From Octopus vulgaris (lineage: Eukaryota), in contig OX597814.1 of NCBI GenBank assembly GCA_951406725.2, positions 211,606,001-211,670,000 of the forward strand: 64,000 nucleotides of DNA, read 5' to 3'. The translations under genes were made by a program, and so were the position numbers. This document shows positions 6,026 to 53,399 of this stretch, piece after piece (position 1 is the first letter of the stretch; each line of letters starts with the position of its first letter). The notes beneath the pieces are model-generated. The model saw only the letters and a program-made list of their open reading frames with translations. It did no database searches and had not been told where the DNA came from.

Positions 6026-6092
<67 letters not shown>

Positions 6093-6094
<2 letters not shown>

Positions 6095-7232
6095 TGGATG
6101 CTAAAGCTCGTGGAAAATCACGAGAGACGAAAGAAGCTTCATTCTATCATAAAGGAAAGCAAAAAATTTGCTATTGATCTCGTGCAGGTTACCCAAACTG
6201 AACAACCCGAGGGAAGTACGGCAACTATTGTTGCAAAGAAGGTGAAAATGATGGCAATGAAAAAAGCGCACGAGCAATTGGCTGATAGGTGAGAGGAGAA
6301 ACCTCTGCACGGCAAATATGTGACCCGCAGCAAACAAGCTGATGTTGACCAGAAGCAAACCCATCAGTGGCTACGGAGCTCAGGGCTAAAAGCAGAGAGC
6401 GAAGGTTTCATCCTGGCTGCTCAAGATCAAAGCCTATTAACCCGGAACTACCAGGCCAATGTGATGAAAAATGGAGCAGACCCAAAATGCCGATTCTGCA
6501 ACGACATGATTGAAACAGTGGACCACCTAATCTCTGGATGTAAAGTCTTAGCACCAGTGGAGTATAAATTAAGACATGACAGAGTTGGCCAATATCTCCA
6601 CTGGCTAATAAGTCGGCATTACAATATCAAAACTGCCGACAAGTGGTATAATCACCACCCTGAGGCTGTAACTGAAGGAGAAAATGTAACCATTCTGTGG
6701 GACTTTCCAGTACATACAGACCGAACCATCAAGGCCAATAAACCAGATATTGTTGTGAAAGACCAAAACAATAAAGTTTGCTTATTGATCGACATGAGCA
6801 TCCCCTGTGATCATAATATCTCAGCGAAAGAGATTGACAAGCTCAGAAAATATAAAGACCTACTCATTGAAATTGAGAAAATGTGGCATCTCAAGGCGGT
6901 TACAATACCAGTGATCGTAGGAGCACTAGGAATGATCAAGAAGGGAACAGAAAATTATATGAGAATGATCCCTGGCTTACCATCCCTGCAAGAAGTGCAA
7001 AAGATTGTCTTAACTGGTACATCACACGTATTGAGAAGAGCATTGTCGATGTGAGAACTGTTGCTGGTCATGTATTTTAATTTAACTTAAAAAAAATAAA
7101 AATAATAAAAAATGAACGAACTACTTAGTTTGGTTTAATGGCCTACCAATATATACTATGAGTTTCTTTGCCCTAGGAGTCGGGAAGACACTCGGCAAGA
7201 AATGGAAGCAAATTTCAAAGAAGAAAAAAAAA
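6093..7232 (+). mobile_element. 5'-truncated R4/Dong-like RLE retrotransposon, copy 3 (least decayed)
   Basis: Frame open from the TAA array with a single TGA at 6290-6292; about 180-bp 3'UTR ending in an A-run followed by (TAA)n. Confidence 0.9.
6320..7054 (+). CDS. C-terminal RT-thumb/zinc-knuckle/restriction-like endonuclease fragment of an R4/Dong-like LINE (244 aa)
   Basis: CRFC..ETVDHLISGC (CCHC), RHD, KPDIVV..LIDMSIP (PD..D), K..KYKDL, IPVIVGALG. Confidence 0.9.
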   Translation: MTRSKQADVDQKQTHQWLRSSGLKAESEGFILAAQDQSLLTRNYQANVMKNGADPKCRFCNDMIETVDHLISGCKVLAPVEYKLRHDRVGQYLHWLISRHYNIKTADKWYNHHPEAVTEGENVTILWDFPVHTDRTIKANKPDIVVKDQNNKVCLLIDMSIPCDHNISAKEIDKLRKYKDLLIEIEKMWHLKAVTIPVIVGALGMIKKGTENYMRMIPGLPSLQEVQKIVLTGTSHVLRRALSM

Positions 7233-7290
<58 letters not shown>

Positions 7291-7499
7291 TGATGATGAT
7301 GATAACAATAATAATAGTAATAATAACAACAGCATCAATAACTACAACAGTAATCCTTCTTGCTATAGACACAAGGGCTGAATTTTGCGGAGGAGGATAG
7401 AGGATTTCATCGACCTCAGTACACTACTGGTACTTAGGTGATCGCCTCCGAAGAGATAAAAGACCGTATCGACTGTGGCGGGACATAATGAAGGCTGAA

Positions 7500-20438: not shown

Positions 20439-20682
20439 ATAATAAAATAAATACCCTTTGTTTTTTTATCTAATGTCTTTAAATCAAGTGCCACGTAAAG
20501 AAATATACCTCGCTCTTTCATAATAAAAGAAATACCCTTTGTTTTTTTATCTAATGTCTTTAAATCAAGTGCCACGTAAAGAAATATACCTCGCTCTTTC
20601 ATAATAAAAGAAATACCCTTTGTTTTTTTATCTAATGTCTTTAAATCAAGTGCCACGTAAAGAAATATACCTCGCTCTTTCA
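20439..20682. repeat. 81-bp unit tandem triplication
   Basis: Units start at 20439, 20520 and 20601 and are essentially identical. Confidence 0.95.
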
Positions 20683-21227
20683 TGATTAATGATGTCTGAA
20701 GTCTATTTATTGCATGTCGGCTAATTTTAAAGTATAAATGAATATAACGAATCATGCAATTATTTAAGAATGTGAATGTGCGTGTGCGTAAAGTACACAC
20801 AGATATATACCCACATATAAACACAGAGGTACACGCATGGATAAGTATATGTATAATTACATATGTGTATGCATGTGTGGAGATGTATATATTTTTGTAT
20901 ATGAGACTACATCTTCGAAGTATGGTCTACTTATAATAAACGCAACATCGTGGGGTATTATATTCCCATTAAAAAACGTAGTCGAGAGCAGTGAAATAAT
21001 TAGAGTACGGACACGTCCTAACTATGCGGCTTTCATCATCTTTAGCATTAAATGCATGCATGTTTCGTTTGACATCGTTGTTCCAATATACCCTTTTTAA
21101 AAATATAGCAGACATATTCATGTCTGCACACACACAAATATATATATATATATATTCCGTATATACACATATTTATATATATATGCATACACTCGGACAC
21201 ACACACGCACACACACTCACACATATA

Positions 21228-43149: not shown

Positions 43150-43344
43150 TTGCCATGATAGATCGTTAGCCACTAAACACATTTTTTCTCTCCTTGTTTC
43201 TCTCCCTCTTTTTTCTGTGTCCCTTTCTGTAGAGGAGCGTAGGCTCGAAACGTAAAAGACTTGTTTCTATTCCTGAGCGTTATATTAATACATGTGTTTG
43301 TTTTGTACACCACCTGTCTTCGTCTTTTTTTTTTCGTAAACTCT

Positions 43345-43348
<4 letters not shown>
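43150..43348 (+). repeat. repeat family H1 with a hammerhead-like motif (43223-43258)
   Basis: Reverse complement of 8473-8672; abuts (TA)n. Confidence 0.7.
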
Positions 43349-43397
<49 letters not shown>

Positions 43398-43479
43398 TAC
43401 ATACATACATACATACATACGTACATGCATACATATATACATATACATGCATTGTTACATATACGTCTACATATATATG

Positions 43480-46400
43480 AGCGTGTGTGAATATAGCTTC
43501 GTGATTTTTCACGACCTCTTGACACCAAGTATTAGGGGAACCGTTTTAGTCGGCGATGGAATAAGCACGAATTAAAAAAAAAATTTTCGGCTATTAACTT
43601 GGAAGTAGTGCGCCATGAAATATGAAGTCCAATCCAATATATTTGGATTAACTGTTGAACTGGACGGACGTCTATTTGTTTCTCTCCCGAGTCAGTAGCA
43701 AGCTACACAGCTTCAAAACTAACTGACCTTAAATATATATATATTTGTAACCACGTGTTTGCCTACAAACCCGTAAGTACGTTTTCATTTAACTACAAAT
43801 TGTTATATACACCTGTTTTTCTTTTAATATCCTCAAACAACCAAATAATCAAAAACTCACACCCTTAAGAGAGAACATTTATATATATATACACTTCTTT
43901 AACTCCCAAGAAAGAATATATATATTTTCAAAAATCAAAAGGAAAACAAACAAAAGAAAAACAAACATGACTAACTTGCAGGCCTGCAACAGACGAAATT
44001 GGTCTGATAACGAAATTGATGTTTTAATAAACACATGGCTCTCTCTTTCCCAAACAGAAAATCTAAATGTCTTGTGTTTGAATGAGATTGCCGAAAAAAC
44101 ATCACAAGTGGTCAACACACGATCCGTCAAACAGATTCGTAGCAAGTTGAAACATATCGAAGTATCTTTCAAACTGATAAGAGGCCATTATGAAAAGCTT
44201 CTACATATTTTCACAGTTCAAGAACAACAACAGCTAGAAAATCAGCAGCCACAACAACAACAACAACAGAATGAGCCACTCCTGGTTCCCAACACAATGG
44301 CTGACCCTGACATCGGTCAGGCACAACAACAACAACAACAGCCACAGCAACAAGAACAACAACAGCCACTCCTCAACTCTAGCTTACTAGACGATTCACT
44401 AAATGCCAGTATCTTTTCACCGCTCTCACAGCAACCACCACAATTATCATCCTCATCATCACCACCGCTGCCACCATCGTCTTCTATCACCAAAAATACC
44501 AACAGAAAACCAAATAAGAAACCACTGCCCTCTTCCCCCACATCACCACCTCAATACTACTGCAGTAACAAAAACTTAAAGAAACATAGGAAGCAGAATG
44601 CGCCCCCCACGGCACAAACAAGAAATCCCCAAATATGCCGCTATTCACTGCGCCAGAGACTCTGCACAAATAGTGACTGCATCTTCACGCATCTACCCGG
44701 CACTAGACGCACTACTGGCCAAGGCCAAAGCACGCATCCCACAATAACATCAACACCACCAAATAGTAAATCGAAATTCAAAACACACACAACTCGGAGT
44801 CCCAAAATCTGCCGGTATTCCCAACGTGAGAGAACATGTCTACTGAGTGACTGTCCCTTCACTCATCTTCCAGGGACCCGACGCACAAACAGAAACGGGG
44901 CCTCAAGCCAACACACAAACCTGAATAACAATAAAAATAGAAACACACCATGCTGCAGTAATGCTGGTCCAGTCTTTTCAGGAAGACACAAAAACAACAA
45001 CAACAAAAGTGGAAACTACAACCCTATCCAACAGTGCAACCACACCTCCAGCCAAAAACTGCTCCCTAAGCAGGAAAATTCTTTTAGCCATGTTGAACAT
45101 GGCAAAAGAGATACACAAAAACATTCTAGCCATCACTCAACACCATCCTATGCTATTACCCCAGTGCACCAATTCCCCACATTGCTGCCACTAACACACA
45201 CAAAAAATCCAAGCCCCCTGCAACAGTCAAAACCAGCCACTACACTAACCTCCACATTCCTACTCAATGCACAAGGTGTCAGCCCTTCCATCAATGCACA
45301 AAAATGGAAGGTCCAATTCATTGAAGACTGGGTTGGTAACCATTCACACCACATCCCTTTCTTCATTCTCACTGAGACCCACCTTGACAACTCCCACTTG
45401 GAAGCCGAAGTGAGAGTGAAGAATTTCACAACCATCCGCGCGGATCGTATCGGCAGGAGGAAGGGTGGAACTGCCATTTTCCTGCATGATTCATTTACGG
45501 CAGATGGAAATAGTATATTCTCCAACGGCTACTGTGAATCAGTCACCGTGCACAACAAAGCCAATGATCTGACAGTAATTGGGCTCTATAGGCCGCCCCA
45601 AACACCCATACTGTGCTTTAAAGAATGCCTCAACAGCATTAAGTGCTTTATTCAACAGTGCCATTCTAGCAACATACTCATGATGGGAGACTTCAATCTA
45701 CCCTGTGTTGACTGGACTACAAACTGTTTGAAACCAAGCACTCCCGCCTCAACCGCTGACAAAGAAGCAGCAGAGTCACTTTTCGACTTTACGAATGAGT
45801 TTTTCTTGTCCCAACTTGTCCTTGCACCAACAAGACATCAGAACATTTTGGACCTAGTGTTTAGTAACCACACTAACACTATACATAACGTTACAGTGGA
45901 AAAAACCCTTCTTTCAGACCATGACATGGTTCTCTGTAACATGAAATTCCACCAGCCGAAAGCTAATCCTAGTGACCTTCCTCCAGCCCACCCATTTGAC
46001 AACATGGATCTCCATAAAGCCAACTGGGATGCAATCAGGAACGAGCTATCAAATGTTGACTGGTCCTTTACACATACACACATCTCCACCAACCATAAAA
46101 CATCTTGGCAGATCTTTGTAGACACCGTCACAGACATATGTGCAAAACACTCCCCACCAAGACCTGTGAACAAAAAGTGCAGAATCCCCCAAAACAGAAA
46201 AACCATTATCAGAAAAATAAAAAGAACAAACAAAAAAATTAACAAACTAAAGTACTGCCAACAGCAACACACACATTCGACGGCTATCGCACTGCTTGAA
46301 TCCAAAAAATATAACCTCCAACAATGCATGAAGTCCCTCATCAATAACCAAAGATCAGCTGAGGAGAAGTGGGCCATTGAAAAAATCAAACTCAACCCCA

Positions 46401-48284
46401 AAGTGTTCTTTTCATTTGCGAGGAAACGCAGGGTCACTGTCTCCACTGTAGGCCCTCTAATTGACGAAACTGGCACTCTCCAAGATAATGCCAAATCCAT
46501 GGCCGAGATACTGCAGAAACAATACTGCTCTGTTTTCAGCAATCCTGATATGGCCGATCTGGGCTGTATCAGTGATGTCAACCCCCAACACACTATATCG
46601 GACATAACGTTTAGTGCCCCTGATGTCTTAGCGGCGATAAACGAAATAAAACACAATTCAGCAGTAGGCCCCGATAGGTTCCCTGCTTGTGTCCTGAAGG
46701 TGTGTCGACACCAACTTGCATCTCCCCTTGCTAATCTGTGGAGAAACTCACTGGATGCTGGCTATATTCCAAAAAACCTTCTGTCCCAGTCTGTTGTCCC
46801 AGTTTTCAAAAAGGGAAACAAGTCCCTTGCAGTGAATTACCGTCCGATCTCACTCACCTCTCATATCATCAAGGTATTTGAGAGGGTGGTGAGATCTCAA
46901 ATAACCCAATTTCTGGAAAGCAACAGACGGCTGATCTCCAACCAACATGGGTTCCGTAATGGAAGGGACTGCCTAACGCAGCTCCTGCATCACTTTGAGG
47001 ACATTTTGAGAGCTTTGGGAGAGGGCTCCAACACCGATGTCATCTACCTTGATTTCAGTAAGGCCTTCGACAGGGTCGATCACAAGATCCTATTGAAAAA
47101 ACTATCCAACATTGGTGTCTCTGGAAAGTTACTGAAATGGATTAAGTGTTTCCTGACAGACAGATCTCAACATGTTGTAGTTGAAGGGGTAAAATCAAGC
47201 CCAGCCAAAGTCAGTAGTGGCGTTCCGCAAGGCACTGTGCTGGGCCCACTTCTTTTCATCATTTACATTAATGACATTAATGACATCATCAAGCACAGCA
47301 ACATAAAAATCTTTGCAGATGACTCCAAGCTACAGAAGGTCATAAATGAGGCGAGTGACCGGACATGCCTTCAGTCAGATCTACTGGCTGTTATCCAATG
47401 GGCAGAAAAAAACAATATGCTGCTGAACGAGGATAAATTTGAGCTAATCCACTTTGGAAAAGAGGATGCCCTGAAACTCCCATACTCCCTTCCTTCAGGT
47501 GAAACTCTCGCGGCGTCCAACAACATCAGAGACTTGGGAGTAATTGTGGACAACAACGTAAGCTGGGCCACTCATATAAACACCAAAGTTGACATGGCCC
47601 GCAGAATGTGTTCCTGGATTCTCAGAACTTTCCAGTCGAGAGATATCCACACCATTATCCTTCTCTTCTCCACTTTTGCCCGACCCCACCTTGAATACTG
47701 TTGTCCACTGTGGTCTCCCCACACAATACAAGGTATCAAAAAAGTCGAAGCACCTCAAAGGGCAATCACAAAAAAGATAGATGGCATGACAGGCCTCGAC
47801 TATTGGGGTCGACTAGAAAAGCTAAAACTCTATTCTCTCCAACGTCGTCGTGAGCGCTACATCATCTGCATGATGTGGAAAATATTCCATCAGCATTGCC
47901 CAAATGATGTTGGCATCACCTTTAAGGTACATCCAAGGCTTGGGCCCCGTGCCATCCGCCCAAAACAAAAATCGCACTCTCATCTCATAACAACAATACG
48001 GCACAATTATTTCACCTCAATTGGCCCCGCTCTCTTTAACATCACACCAAAACACATTAAAACAGAAACTGACCCTATAGGGTTCAAGAAGTCTTTGGAC
48101 AGATTCCTTCAAGAAATCCCGGATAAACCCCCTACACCCGGATATGTCTCTGTAAACAATAACTCTCTACTTGAGTGGGCCATAGTGCCCAAATTCTGAC
48201 TTGAAAGACTTCACCAGGTGGTGCTATTAAGTTAGACATGGCCTGGGCCAATAATGGCCGAAACCTATCAAAGTATCAAAGTAT

Positions 48285-48285
<1 letters not shown>
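43480..48285 (+). mobile_element. apparently full-length APE-type non-LTR retrotransposon (clade tentative, Proto2-like)
   Basis: About 490-bp 5'UTR, one 4.2-kb ORF, short 3'UTR with a GGCC-AATAAT-GGCC stem-loop and (AAAGTATC)n tail running into (TA)n; 5' boundary approximate, no TSD found. Confidence 0.9.
43967..48199 (+). CDS. 1410-aa polyprotein: Myb/SANT-like N-terminus, polyQ/Pro-Ser linker, two CCCH zinc fingers, APE endonuclease, reverse transcriptase
   Basis: WSDNEIDVLINTW...RSVKQIRSKLK; two C-x8-C-x4-C-x3-H; APE motifs LTETHL, YRPP, MGDFN, LDLVF, SDHD; RT motifs YRPISLTS, DFSKAFD, GVPQGTVLGP, FADD; no stops. Confidence 0.95.
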   Translation: MTNLQACNRRNWSDNEIDVLINTWLSLSQTENLNVLCLNEIAEKTSQVVNTRSVKQIRSKLKHIEVSFKLIRGHYEKLLHIFTVQEQQQLENQQPQQQQQQNEPLLVPNTMADPDIGQAQQQQQQPQQQEQQQPLLNSSLLDDSLNASIFSPLSQQPPQLSSSSSPPLPPSSSITKNTNRKPNKKPLPSSPTSPPQYYCSNKNLKKHRKQNAPPTAQTRNPQICRYSLRQRLCTNSDCIFTHLPGTRRTTGQGQSTHPTITSTPPNSKSKFKTHTTRSPKICRYSQRERTCLLSDCPFTHLPGTRRTNRNGASSQHTNLNNNKNRNTPCCSNAGPVFSGRHKNNNNKSGNYNPIQQCNHTSSQKLLPKQENSFSHVEHGKRDTQKHSSHHSTPSYAITPVHQFPTLLPLTHTKNPSPLQQSKPATTLTSTFLLNAQGVSPSINAQKWKVQFIEDWVGNHSHHIPFFILTETHLDNSHLEAEVRVKNFTTIRADRIGRRKGGTAIFLHDSFTADGNSIFSNGYCESVTVHNKANDLTVIGLYRPPQTPILCFKECLNSIKCFIQQCHSSNILMMGDFNLPCVDWTTNCLKPSTPASTADKEAAESLFDFTNEFFLSQLVLAPTRHQNILDLVFSNHTNTIHNVTVEKTLLSDHDMVLCNMKFHQPKANPSDLPPAHPFDNMDLHKANWDAIRNELSNVDWSFTHTHISTNHKTSWQIFVDTVTDICAKHSPPRPVNKKCRIPQNRKTIIRKIKRTNKKINKLKYCQQQHTHSTAIALLESKKYNLQQCMKSLINNQRSAEEKWAIEKIKLNPKVFFSFARKRRVTVSTVGPLIDETGTLQDNAKSMAEILQKQYCSVFSNPDMADLGCISDVNPQHTISDITFSAPDVLAAINEIKHNSAVGPDRFPACVLKVCRHQLASPLANLWRNSLDAGYIPKNLLSQSVVPVFKKGNKSLAVNYRPISLTSHIIKVFERVVRSQITQFLESNRRLISNQHGFRNGRDCLTQLLHHFEDILRALGEGSNTDVIYLDFSKAFDRVDHKILLKKLSNIGVSGKLLKWIKCFLTDRSQHVVVEGVKSSPAKVSSGVPQGTVLGPLLFIIYINDINDIIKHSNIKIFADDSKLQKVINEASDRTCLQSDLLAVIQWAEKNNMLLNEDKFELIHFGKEDALKLPYSLPSGETLAASNNIRDLGVIVDNNVSWATHINTKVDMARRMCSWILRTFQSRDIHTIILLFSTFARPHLEYCCPLWSPHTIQGIKKVEAPQRAITKKIDGMTGLDYWGRLEKLKLYSLQRRRERYIICMMWKIFHQHCPNDVGITFKVHPRLGPRAIRPKQKSHSHLITTIRHNYFTSIGPALFNITPKHIKTETDPIGFKKSLDRFLQEIPDKPPTPGYVSVNNNSLLEWAIVPKF

Positions 48286-48321
<36 letters not shown>

Positions 48322-52129: not shown

Positions 52130-53399
52130 CAGGGTGGGGAAGCAAAATTTACAATGAACGTTAAGTTGTCTTTTCTCAGAAGGCACTAAGTCAATTGTTT
52201 TGAAATCTAGCAGATATTGATCTCATAATCATACCTAACACTATTATCCTTATCTTTTCAGAAACTTTTGCCCATATGAGTAATCAGGAAAGCAAACGCC
52301 AAAGAGTGTGTGATTTTCTGAATGCACTCGTCACACCAAAGGAGATTTGAAGAATAGTTGGAGTGTCCATAAAGACTGTTTATAACGTAAAGAATAGAAT
52401 GACTATGAGCAAAACTATTACGAGGAAGTATGGAAGAGGAGGAATCAACAAAATACATATCAAAGCTTTTATTAAAGCTCTCAAATCTAAAATCCTAAAG
52501 GATCCAACCAAATCCATGAGAAAAATGGCAATTGAACTTGAGGTAGAAAACAAGACTATTAGAAATGCAGTAAAATATGATTTGAGGTTAAACTCTGACA
52601 CAAGAACACCAAAACACTTGTTGACAACAGCTATGAAGGAAAAGAGACTGGAAAGGTGCAAGAAAATTATTACGTGGTTCAAGAAAAAGTCCTCCACTGT
52701 AACGAACTTTTCATATGAAAAGATCTTCACTGTCGATGCTGTTCTGAACCGCAGAAATGACAGATTTATCGCAAGATCGACAGATGAGGTTAAGGGGACA
52801 TTCAAAACAAAAAAATCCTGTTCAGATTATGGCTTTTGGTATTAAGGCTTCCGATGAAAAGAAAATGCCTATACAATTCTACAAATCTGATGAAAAGATC
52901 AATGTTGATGCTTACTGCAAGACTCTGAGATACGATGTATTGCCATGGCTTAAAGCAAACTACCCAGATGGTAATTATTTATGGACACAGGATGGTGCTC
53001 CAACCAACACAGCTAGAAAAATACAAGATTTCTGCAAATCCAACTTGGGCAATTTTTGGGAATCATGTTTATGGCCGCCTTCTAGCCCAGATCTAAACCC
53101 TCTGGATTATGCTACTTGGGGTATTTTACAACATGCTACCAATACAACGTCACACAGCAATATCTTAAAGATACTATTAAAGAAGAATGGGAAAAGTTGT
53201 CTCCCGAATATTTGAGGAACACTTGTGCAAGTTTCAGGAAGAATGTGATGGCAATTACTGAGAAAGAAGAAGGACAGAATAAAAACATTTTCTATTACGT
53301 AAATTTTCTTGTGGCAAATGAATTCTCATGACTTTCAATAAACTAATTGGTCTTTCAAACCCTGCCTCAAAACATTGTAAATTTTGCTTCCCCACCCTG
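52130..53399 (+). mobile_element. full-length maT/DD37D Tc1/mariner transposon, inactivated
   Basis: Perfect 27-bp TIRs CAGGGTGGGGAAGCAAAATTTACAATG; QDGAP-to-NPLD spacing is 37 aa; first catalytic D appears as Y (FSYEK); frameshift near 52810 splits ORFs 52363-52845 and 52757-53215. Confidence 0.93.

Follow-up and report, generated by a model that had tools for sequence, protein, structure and literature searches.

How does a retrotransposon express an enzyme whose reading frame offers no AUG ahead of its first domain, and what does a Myb-like domain contribute at the start of its other protein? Both questions are raised by a long interspersed nuclear element (LINE) found in 64,000 nucleotides of Octopus vulgaris DNA (assembly GCA_951406725.2, contig OX597814.1, positions 211,606,001 to 211,670,000, forward strand), a stretch called the window here and numbered from its first letter. 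Sequence comparison strongly indicates that it is a CR1 LINE in which a predicted Myb domain has been swapped in and a putative -1 frameshift is used. More precisely, we regard it as probably a young CR1-clade element with two open reading frames (ORFs) and a predicted Myb/SANT-like domain in place of a PHD finger, whose AUG-less ORF2 would be reached by -1 frameshifting, yielding a 409-residue ORF1 protein (ORF1p) and a rarer fusion of about 1,411 residues.

The window copy reads as one unbroken ORF of 1,410 codons, from 43967 to 48199, with no stop between the ORF1 region and the part encoding the apurinic/apyrimidinic endonuclease (APE) together with the reverse transcriptase (RT). The conserved C-terminus of ORF1 is found in the +1 frame of this copy at 45081-45194, beginning at a run of four T, as revealed by a match to the relative P0124 (51% over 37 residues, E 5e-8). 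Moreover, two additional T follow 45081 in all four sequencing runs (four studies, three organism codes), and the depth of the TT form equals the total depth. The two extra T and the C-terminus in the +1 frame thus define a family form in which a 409-residue ORF1 overlaps an ORF2 in the -1 frame. In this form the heptamer U_UUU_UUA stands in the ORF1 frame, with a stop of the ORF2 frame four codons before it, and the first in-frame ATG of ORF2, at 45680, lies within the endonuclease, none preceding that domain. The original prediction, made from the sequence alone, had delimited the region as 43967..44890; its start holds, but ORF1 ends further on, with the C-terminus described above, and it made no mention of the frame running open into APE-RT. 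The features of the element are as follows.

43348-43478: TA/TACA microsatellite, upstream of the element's 5' end
43644..43966, + strand: 5' untranslated region (UTR); run contigs start at 43644, 43659, 43669, 43743 and 43813, and the true 5' end is uncertain, possibly at about 43479
43967..45194, + strand: ORF1 in the family form, 409 residues, stop TAA at 45192-45194; in the window copy the last 36 codons are in the +1 frame
43991..44185, + strand: predicted Myb/SANT-like (Myb_DNA-bind_4) three-helix domain, residues 9-73, third helix extended to about residue 92; from Pfam, a model and the homologues P0126, P0127 and P0129
44219..44600, + strand: Q-rich and P/S-rich low-complexity linker, from the sequence
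44636..44692, + strand: CCCH finger 1 (C-x8-C-x4-C-x3-H), residues 224-242, homologous to the third finger of the relatives' ORF1
44810..44866, + strand: CCCH finger 2, residues 282-300, tandem duplicate of finger 1
45067..45069, + strand: TAA that closes, in the family form, the -1 (ORF2) frame; it stands four codons ahead of the slippery site
45082..45086, + strand: candidate -1 slippery site, with a run of four T in the window and, in the family form, of six, which reads U_UUU_UUA in frame with ORF1 (Ser, Phe and Leu codons)
45086..48199, + strand: ORF2, with a linker, AP endonuclease (residues 451-655 of P0001), reverse transcriptase (residues 950-1192) and a C-terminal region
48200..48287, + strand: 3' UTR followed by a tail of about 2.75 tandem 8-nt units (TATCAAAG; tail at 48266-48287), from the sequence
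48288..48317: (TA)15 array directly after the tail, the 3' flank of the insertion

Could the family truly consist of single-ORF elements, with Myb, CCCH, APE and RT on one R2-like polypeptide, as the window reads? The 1,410-codon frame itself suggests so; CR1s include single-ORF PHD-APE-RT elements according to the available text of PMC4120745, and contigs lose rare variants, so that further four-T copies may exist. Six T at full depth in every run, an ORF1 C-terminal motif kept intact in the other frame and two overlapping frames in 19/19 relatives make this highly improbable, however. The single frame of the window stems either from an assembly error in a homopolymer or from a mutation that this copy carries, and not from the family design; as a practical point, the ORF that an annotator meets in the window differs from the family form.

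Relatives came from a pattern scan of metagenomes that returned 74 loci, of which 54 were not relatives of the LINE and were dropped; among the 20 true relatives L042 was excluded, having too little upstream DNA, which left 19 assessable ones from lineages 34-70% alike in the endonuclease. All 19 possess an aligned slippery site in the ORF1 frame, at the same column of the ORF1 alignment: U_UUU_UUA in seven, G_UUU_UUA in two and G_GAU_UUU in ten. In 18 of them the site stands 0-16 codons past the last stop of the ORF2 frame. Such heptamers are rare elsewhere, with 0/4,317 other codon positions of ORF1 and 2/5,220 of ORF2 in 11 representatives (2/9,537 in total). Stops in the -1 frame number 314 in 3,501 codons upstream of the site and 0 in 860 overlap codons downstream, and 16/19 relatives have no ATG in the ORF2 frame before the first strand of the endonuclease.

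Codon choice at the site is likewise constrained. The Phe codon is TTT in 19/19 relatives (TTT usage in ORF1, 36/109), and the next codon is TTA in 9/9 loci where the heptamer needs it (TTA usage for Leu, 34/332), whereas it varies (CTG, CTC, CTA, CGG) in the ten G_GAU_UUU loci, where it falls outside the heptamer. These ten loci group in one starred clade, which indicates that the site moved by one codon and stayed slippery. According to the available text of PMC5009743, U_UUU_UUA (human immunodeficiency virus, HIV), G_GAU_UUU (pea enation mosaic virus) and A_AAA_AAC are shift sites, and G_UU is a tolerated first triplet. The last of these heptamers was found in L075, a locus reached with another query and 35% identical, which has CCCH fingers, a 214-nt -1 overlap and A_AAA_AAC seven codons past the stop. 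L075 was the only one with the CCCH layout among nine loci examined upstream, out of 29 found in genome contigs; of the others, four combine PHD fingers with 2A-like motifs and the remaining four are either truncated or broken. Polymerase slippage was set aside as an explanation because 10/19 sites have a run of only four T.

The four PHD loci with 2A-like motifs (L078, L080, L082 and L084) are more distant CR1-like elements, located in bacterial genome bins that are likely contaminated by host DNA, and their motif, D-x-E-x-NPGP, precedes the PHD fingers. 2A-like motifs in LINEs are known, and here the motif is a putative recoding device of a different kind in neighbouring lineages.

Several points weigh against the frameshift reading. 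Because the first such heptamer past the last stop was taken as the site, part of the stop count follows from the way the site was chosen, and the three heptamer types were picked once the data had been inspected. About 11 related lineages underlie the 19 loci, which thus are not independent and probably include one switch of type. An upstream in-frame ATG is present in 3/19 relatives and in L075, and for 13 of the 95 ORF2 homologues that could be assigned the called protein has a long N-terminal extension. The frameshift product is a prediction from sequence. The search for a stimulator detected no conserved 3' structure (folding z averaged -0.05 in 15 sequences; the window alone shows a weak stem-loop, at -2.7), and a simple pseudoknot scan gave no consistent pseudoknot after the slip site. 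The bases that follow the site (45087-45103) form a 7-bp hairpin and also pair with the 3' UTR at 48220-48243. In the window element this pairing between slip region and 3' UTR, at -19.7 kcal/mol, is the best of 49 windows; 9/117 other segments equal it, and none of six relatives ranks high on both controls. Consequently a long-range stimulator at the 3' end was not adopted.

The missing stimulator also bears on an alternative in which ORF2 is made separately, by termination and reinitiation at a non-AUG codon after the ORF1 stop, the F-L/D-F motif being kept for protein reasons and the Myb domain residing on ORF1p only. Such a route would suit the short distance between the ORF1 stop and the endonuclease (about 23-77 nt in relatives, about 66 nt in the window element), in which an in-frame CTG at 45218 could serve reinitiation and which tells against the frameshift to that extent; AUG-independent initiation is moreover favoured for mammalian LINE ORF2 in the available text of PMC5009743. 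It leaves unexplained, however, a -1 frame that, in 19/19 loci, has no stop throughout the 199-322 nt by which the frames overlap ahead of the ORF1 stop, the fixed synonymous codons that are relaxed where the heptamer shifts by one codon, and the third heptamer type in L075. We consider reinitiation unlikely.

Under -1 frameshifting, most ribosomes would stop at the TAA at 45192 and release ORF1p, which may bind the element's RNA through its CCCH fingers and oligomerise through the helix that follows the F-L motif. A minority would slip at U_UUU_UUA and read on into APE-RT, the slip rate setting the ratio of ORF1p to enzyme as in Gag/Gag-Pol. On the fusion enzyme, the Myb domain could anchor the protein to DNA in place of the relatives' chromatin-reading PHD finger, most likely with a loose rather than strict sequence preference.

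The Myb assignment itself requires scrutiny. The N-terminal pattern seen at the outset (W-S-x-x-E...RS-x-x-QIRSKLK) is present in the translation from ATG 43967 as W12-S-D-N-E..L..W24..IA..RS-V-K-QIRSKLK, followed by the Q-rich (residues 85-133) and P/S-rich linkers. The suggestion of a Myb/SANT-like domain in a LINE ORF1 gains support from the Pfam profile PF13837 (Myb_DNA-bind_4), which matches residues 1-83 with 28.9 bits (E 1.5e-6, cut-off 27) and the isolated domain, residues 9-73, with 29.4 bits (E 1.1e-6), although the full protein scores 21.6 bits, under the cut-off. The homologue P0126 passes independently at 31.7 bits. Six residues of the third helix (R52, Q56, I57, K60, K62 and I64) are invariant in 4/4 sequences that are 29-36% alike. 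Atlas neighbours of the domain are mostly Myb/SANT clusters, though only at 0.82-0.87, and the ten best named atlas matches belong to the same family or clan.

A structure model built from the four-row alignment contains helices at 14-27, 35-48, 54-73 and 75-92 (mean pLDDT 73), while a single-sequence model fused helices 1 and 2. Three helices are predicted, but the best VIA structural matches are generic (homeodomain, Z 5.7, rmsd 2.0 over 55; trihelix GT-1, Z 4.8, rmsd 5.9 over 75). The case is further weakened by Foldseek, which gave no significant match to the model (best E 3.3; DNAJC2 SANT, E 6.2), by a PDB sequence search that returned no significant Myb match, and by the homologues P0126, P0127 and P0129, which may lie outside LINEs; DNA binding by the domain is a prediction. 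As the structural matches are only generic, the Myb label rests on profiles. Searches limited by length found no homologue of the N-terminal region among proteins of 775-2,468 or 169-539 residues, which does not imply absence.

These weaknesses invite the view that the N-terminal helices form no working Myb domain and reach their score by chance, being a helical bundle of a generic or decaying kind. The profile score barely exceeds the cut-off and drops under it when the whole protein is scanned, neither the fold nor a PDB sequence search yields a significant match, and Leu stands at two of the family pattern's three aromatic core positions. Yet chance accounts poorly for P0126 exceeding the cut-off on its own, for the third-helix residues unchanged among such divergent sequences, or for atlas matches confined to one family or clan, and we find this view quite unlikely. 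As for the origin of the predicted Myb domain, the available text of PMC10027918 traces Myb-SANT/MADF domains to PIF DNA transposons, and such a transposon is a possible donor.

How unusual is the ORF1 that carries it? The module ICRYSxRxRxC-x4-C-xFTHLPGTRR indeed occurs twice, in fingers at residues 224-242 (44636-44692) and 282-300 (44810-44866), both spaced C-x8-C-x4-C-x3-H, and the two copies share 63/93 nt. Pfam yields only sub-cut-off Nab2-type CCCH matches for them (PF14608, E 4e-4, 21.1 versus 25.8 bits). In a ten-row ORF1 alignment (eight loci with full or part N-terminus, two partial), however, the C and H ligands of the CCCH fingers are invariant in 10/10 relatives, as are all PHD-type ligands. 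In the relatives, ORF1 consists of a helical domain followed by a PHD-type finger, three CCCH fingers, the F-L/D-F motif with a helix, and a Q/P-rich tail; Pfam finds the PHD in 6/9 of them, with E up to 0.1. No Myb profile match was obtained in the 9/9 relatives' ORF1s scanned with Pfam, and a profile-profile comparison of the element's Myb alignment with the relatives' ORF1s gave a probability of 0.1%. The element's finger corresponds to the relatives' third (50-61% over 28 residues in P0128 and P0132). P0124 has a single copy of it, and the finger was duplicated after the split from P0124.

The combination had been called an unusual module. This applies to the Myb domain, which was found in none of the nine relatives' ORF1s scanned and in no entry of the Jockey-superfamily ORF1 catalogue (PMC4120745), but not to the CCCH fingers, which are standard in this lineage, an outcome that the original prediction had itself named as counting against it; since they are the norm, only the exchange of PHD for Myb is unusual in the element's branch. 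The polyQ, also named in the original prediction, belongs to a linker of low complexity and gives no hint of having a role.

Two side observations concern the ORF1s and 5' ends of the relatives. In the sub-branch of L002, L059 and L066, ORF1 exceeds 900 residues, with two PHD units and an acidic N-terminal tract, and still ends at U_UUU_UUA. L015, L045 and L024 represent two families 59% alike in the endonuclease that share a near-identical start of the 5' UTR, which suggests promoter exchange or strong constraint.

Where does the element belong? A Pfam scan of its ORF2 recovers PF14529, PF03372 and PF00078 and no RNase H family. Its RT agrees with O.sinensis_46 and O.sinensis_59_LINE at 97/98 visible residues, compared by eye with the supplementary alignment of PMC10294476; these clusters are placed in CR1 by the published tree and classed there as Jockey/CR1, with 52 and 37 members, and they also resemble the element in their APE-RT ORF2 and short tandem 3' tail. 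We infer an octopus CR1-clade LINE family, and not an R2- or R1-type lineage such as the Myb domain had brought to mind. The Proto2 clade, also considered, was rejected, as Proto2-3_SK has differing RT motifs in the published alignment. In the available text the published clusters are RT clusters only: "ORF1" appears once in the main text of PMC10294476, in a reference, and a motif search of its supplement files 1-12 gave no match.

The closest database relatives of the element's APE-RT are 41-48% identical, and the two labelled ones are comb jellies (P0033, Pleurobrachia bachei; the cluster of P0004, with a member from Bolinopsis microptera). Together with loci L002-L070 they make up the PHD and triple-CCCH relatives, which share with the element the last CCCH finger, the F-L/D-F motif, the helix, the Q/P-rich tail, the -1 overlap and the slippery site. 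Where these relatives combine a helical domain with a PHD and three fingers and lack a Myb, the element has a Myb but lacks the PHD, and of the fingers it has the third alone, in duplicate. We make no claim of horizontal transfer from comb jellies, given 47-48% identity, a long branch and no resolved position. Viral contigs contained no relative of the element and no match to its tail, and an Rfam scan produced only sub-threshold matches driven by microsatellites. Short tandem 3' tails are also present in 6/6 relatives with a full 3' end. Copies truncated at the 5' end are apparent, with more diverged contigs and higher summed depth toward the 3' end in 3/4 runs. None of the runs listed as containing the element is recorded as RNA, which carries no weight for or against its expression. 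In run X15 a contig begins at 43813 with a 23-nt loose end, which we take to be a template-switch adapter, and cover drops near an A-rich stretch at about 46234; this hints weakly at a sense cDNA whose 5' end would lie 154 nt ahead of the ATG.

R2 elements carry an N-terminal Myb and a restriction-like endonuclease. A fusion made by frameshifting would resemble R2 and TRAS in bearing a Myb-type domain on the polypeptide that nicks and reverse-transcribes (in TRAS the Myb is in Pol and has a proposed targeting role, according to the available text of PMC5537684). The element differs from both in its CR1 clade, in a Myb of the Myb_DNA-bind_4 type at the start of ORF1, and in that site specificity is, for it, a hypothesis. 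Does its Myb nevertheless read sequence and direct the element into (TA)n, as proposed for the R2 and TRAS domains and as the original prediction suggested? The idea is compatible with the frameshift, which would put the Myb on the endonuclease. At its 3' end the window copy runs straight into (TA)15, and a TA/TACA array lies close to its 5' end, while only 2.1% of window bases lie in (TA)8+ arrays; 0/6 PHD-type relatives end in TA, which fits without being a test. This is a single insertion noticed after the fact, however, in 64 kb with 40 (TA)8+ arrays, and the endonuclease or tail-target pairing alone can give an AT-rich preference, so that we hold TA targeting to be rather doubtful. A bolder proposal, in which a deep CR1 lineage spanning comb jellies to octopuses uses Gag-Pol-style -1 frameshifting and the octopus branch has taken up a Myb that, riding on the fusion enzyme, steers it into TA microsatellites, an APE-type LINE thereby re-inventing the R2 layout via recoding, seems to us improbable.

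The wider literature offers partial parallels. ORF1 types I-V of the Jockey superfamily are likewise modular, with domain swapping, and PHD is common in CR1; the domains catalogued are RRM, CCHC, PHD, Tnp22, esterase and zf/lz, and CCCH, Myb and SANT occur 0 times in the available text (PMC4120745). Octopus RTE and Dong LINEs are described in PMC9115989, whose available text mentions Myb 0 times. Retroviral Gag/Gag-Pol and plant-virus -1 shifting (HIV, pea enation mosaic virus) are alike in their heptamers and in the -1 overlap of structural and enzyme genes; the present case is a non-LTR (long terminal repeat) element with no conserved stem-loop, pseudoknot or long-range stimulator detected. 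ORF2 of the Dictyostelium element TRE5-A has been proposed to depend on a frameshift. For Paramecium LINE groups 1-2, a +1 frameshift or reinitiation was proposed for ORF2 in the available text of PMC5405496. The element and its relatives differ from these in a -1 direction and in several canonical heptamer types conserved over a deep lineage. The open-access literature, as distinct from Repbase Reports and subscription journals, yielded no account of a LINE ORF1 with Myb or CCCH, nor of LINEs that shift to -1 at a slippery site; CCCH fingers as a lineage norm, the Myb swap and slippery-site shifting are thus provisionally new.

LINE ORF2 translation is treated as unexplained AUG-independent initiation in the available text of the review PMC5009743. 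This lineage supplies a short natural cassette, with four heptamer types at one site. If the frameshift is real, the ORF1 domains (PHD or Myb, CCCH) would be part of the integrating enzyme, swaps of ORF1 domains would have to be read differently, and the annotation of ORF2 from an internal Met, as in 48 of the 95 assignable homologues, would be wrong. The replacement of PHD by the predicted Myb is a natural experiment on target choice in a repeat-rich genome.

Other features of the window lie outside the element. Just upstream of the 5' microsatellite, 43209-43327 is a very high-copy short repeat (a SINE-like end, from short interspersed nuclear element) with summed contig depth in the thousands in 4/4 runs. 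At 6293-7054 (+ strand, flanks 6026-6093 and 7234-7326), the end of a LINE truncated at its 5' side, bearing zf-RVT together with a restriction-like nuclease motif, lies between (AAT)n and (TAA)n; it is presumably a Dong/R4 element in a TAA target. A frameshifted Tc1/mariner-type transposase remnant with weak HTH_Tnp_Tc3_2 and DDE_3 matches occupies 52351-53215 (+ strand), and an 81-nt unit is repeated at 20439-20683 in three nearly perfect tandem copies.

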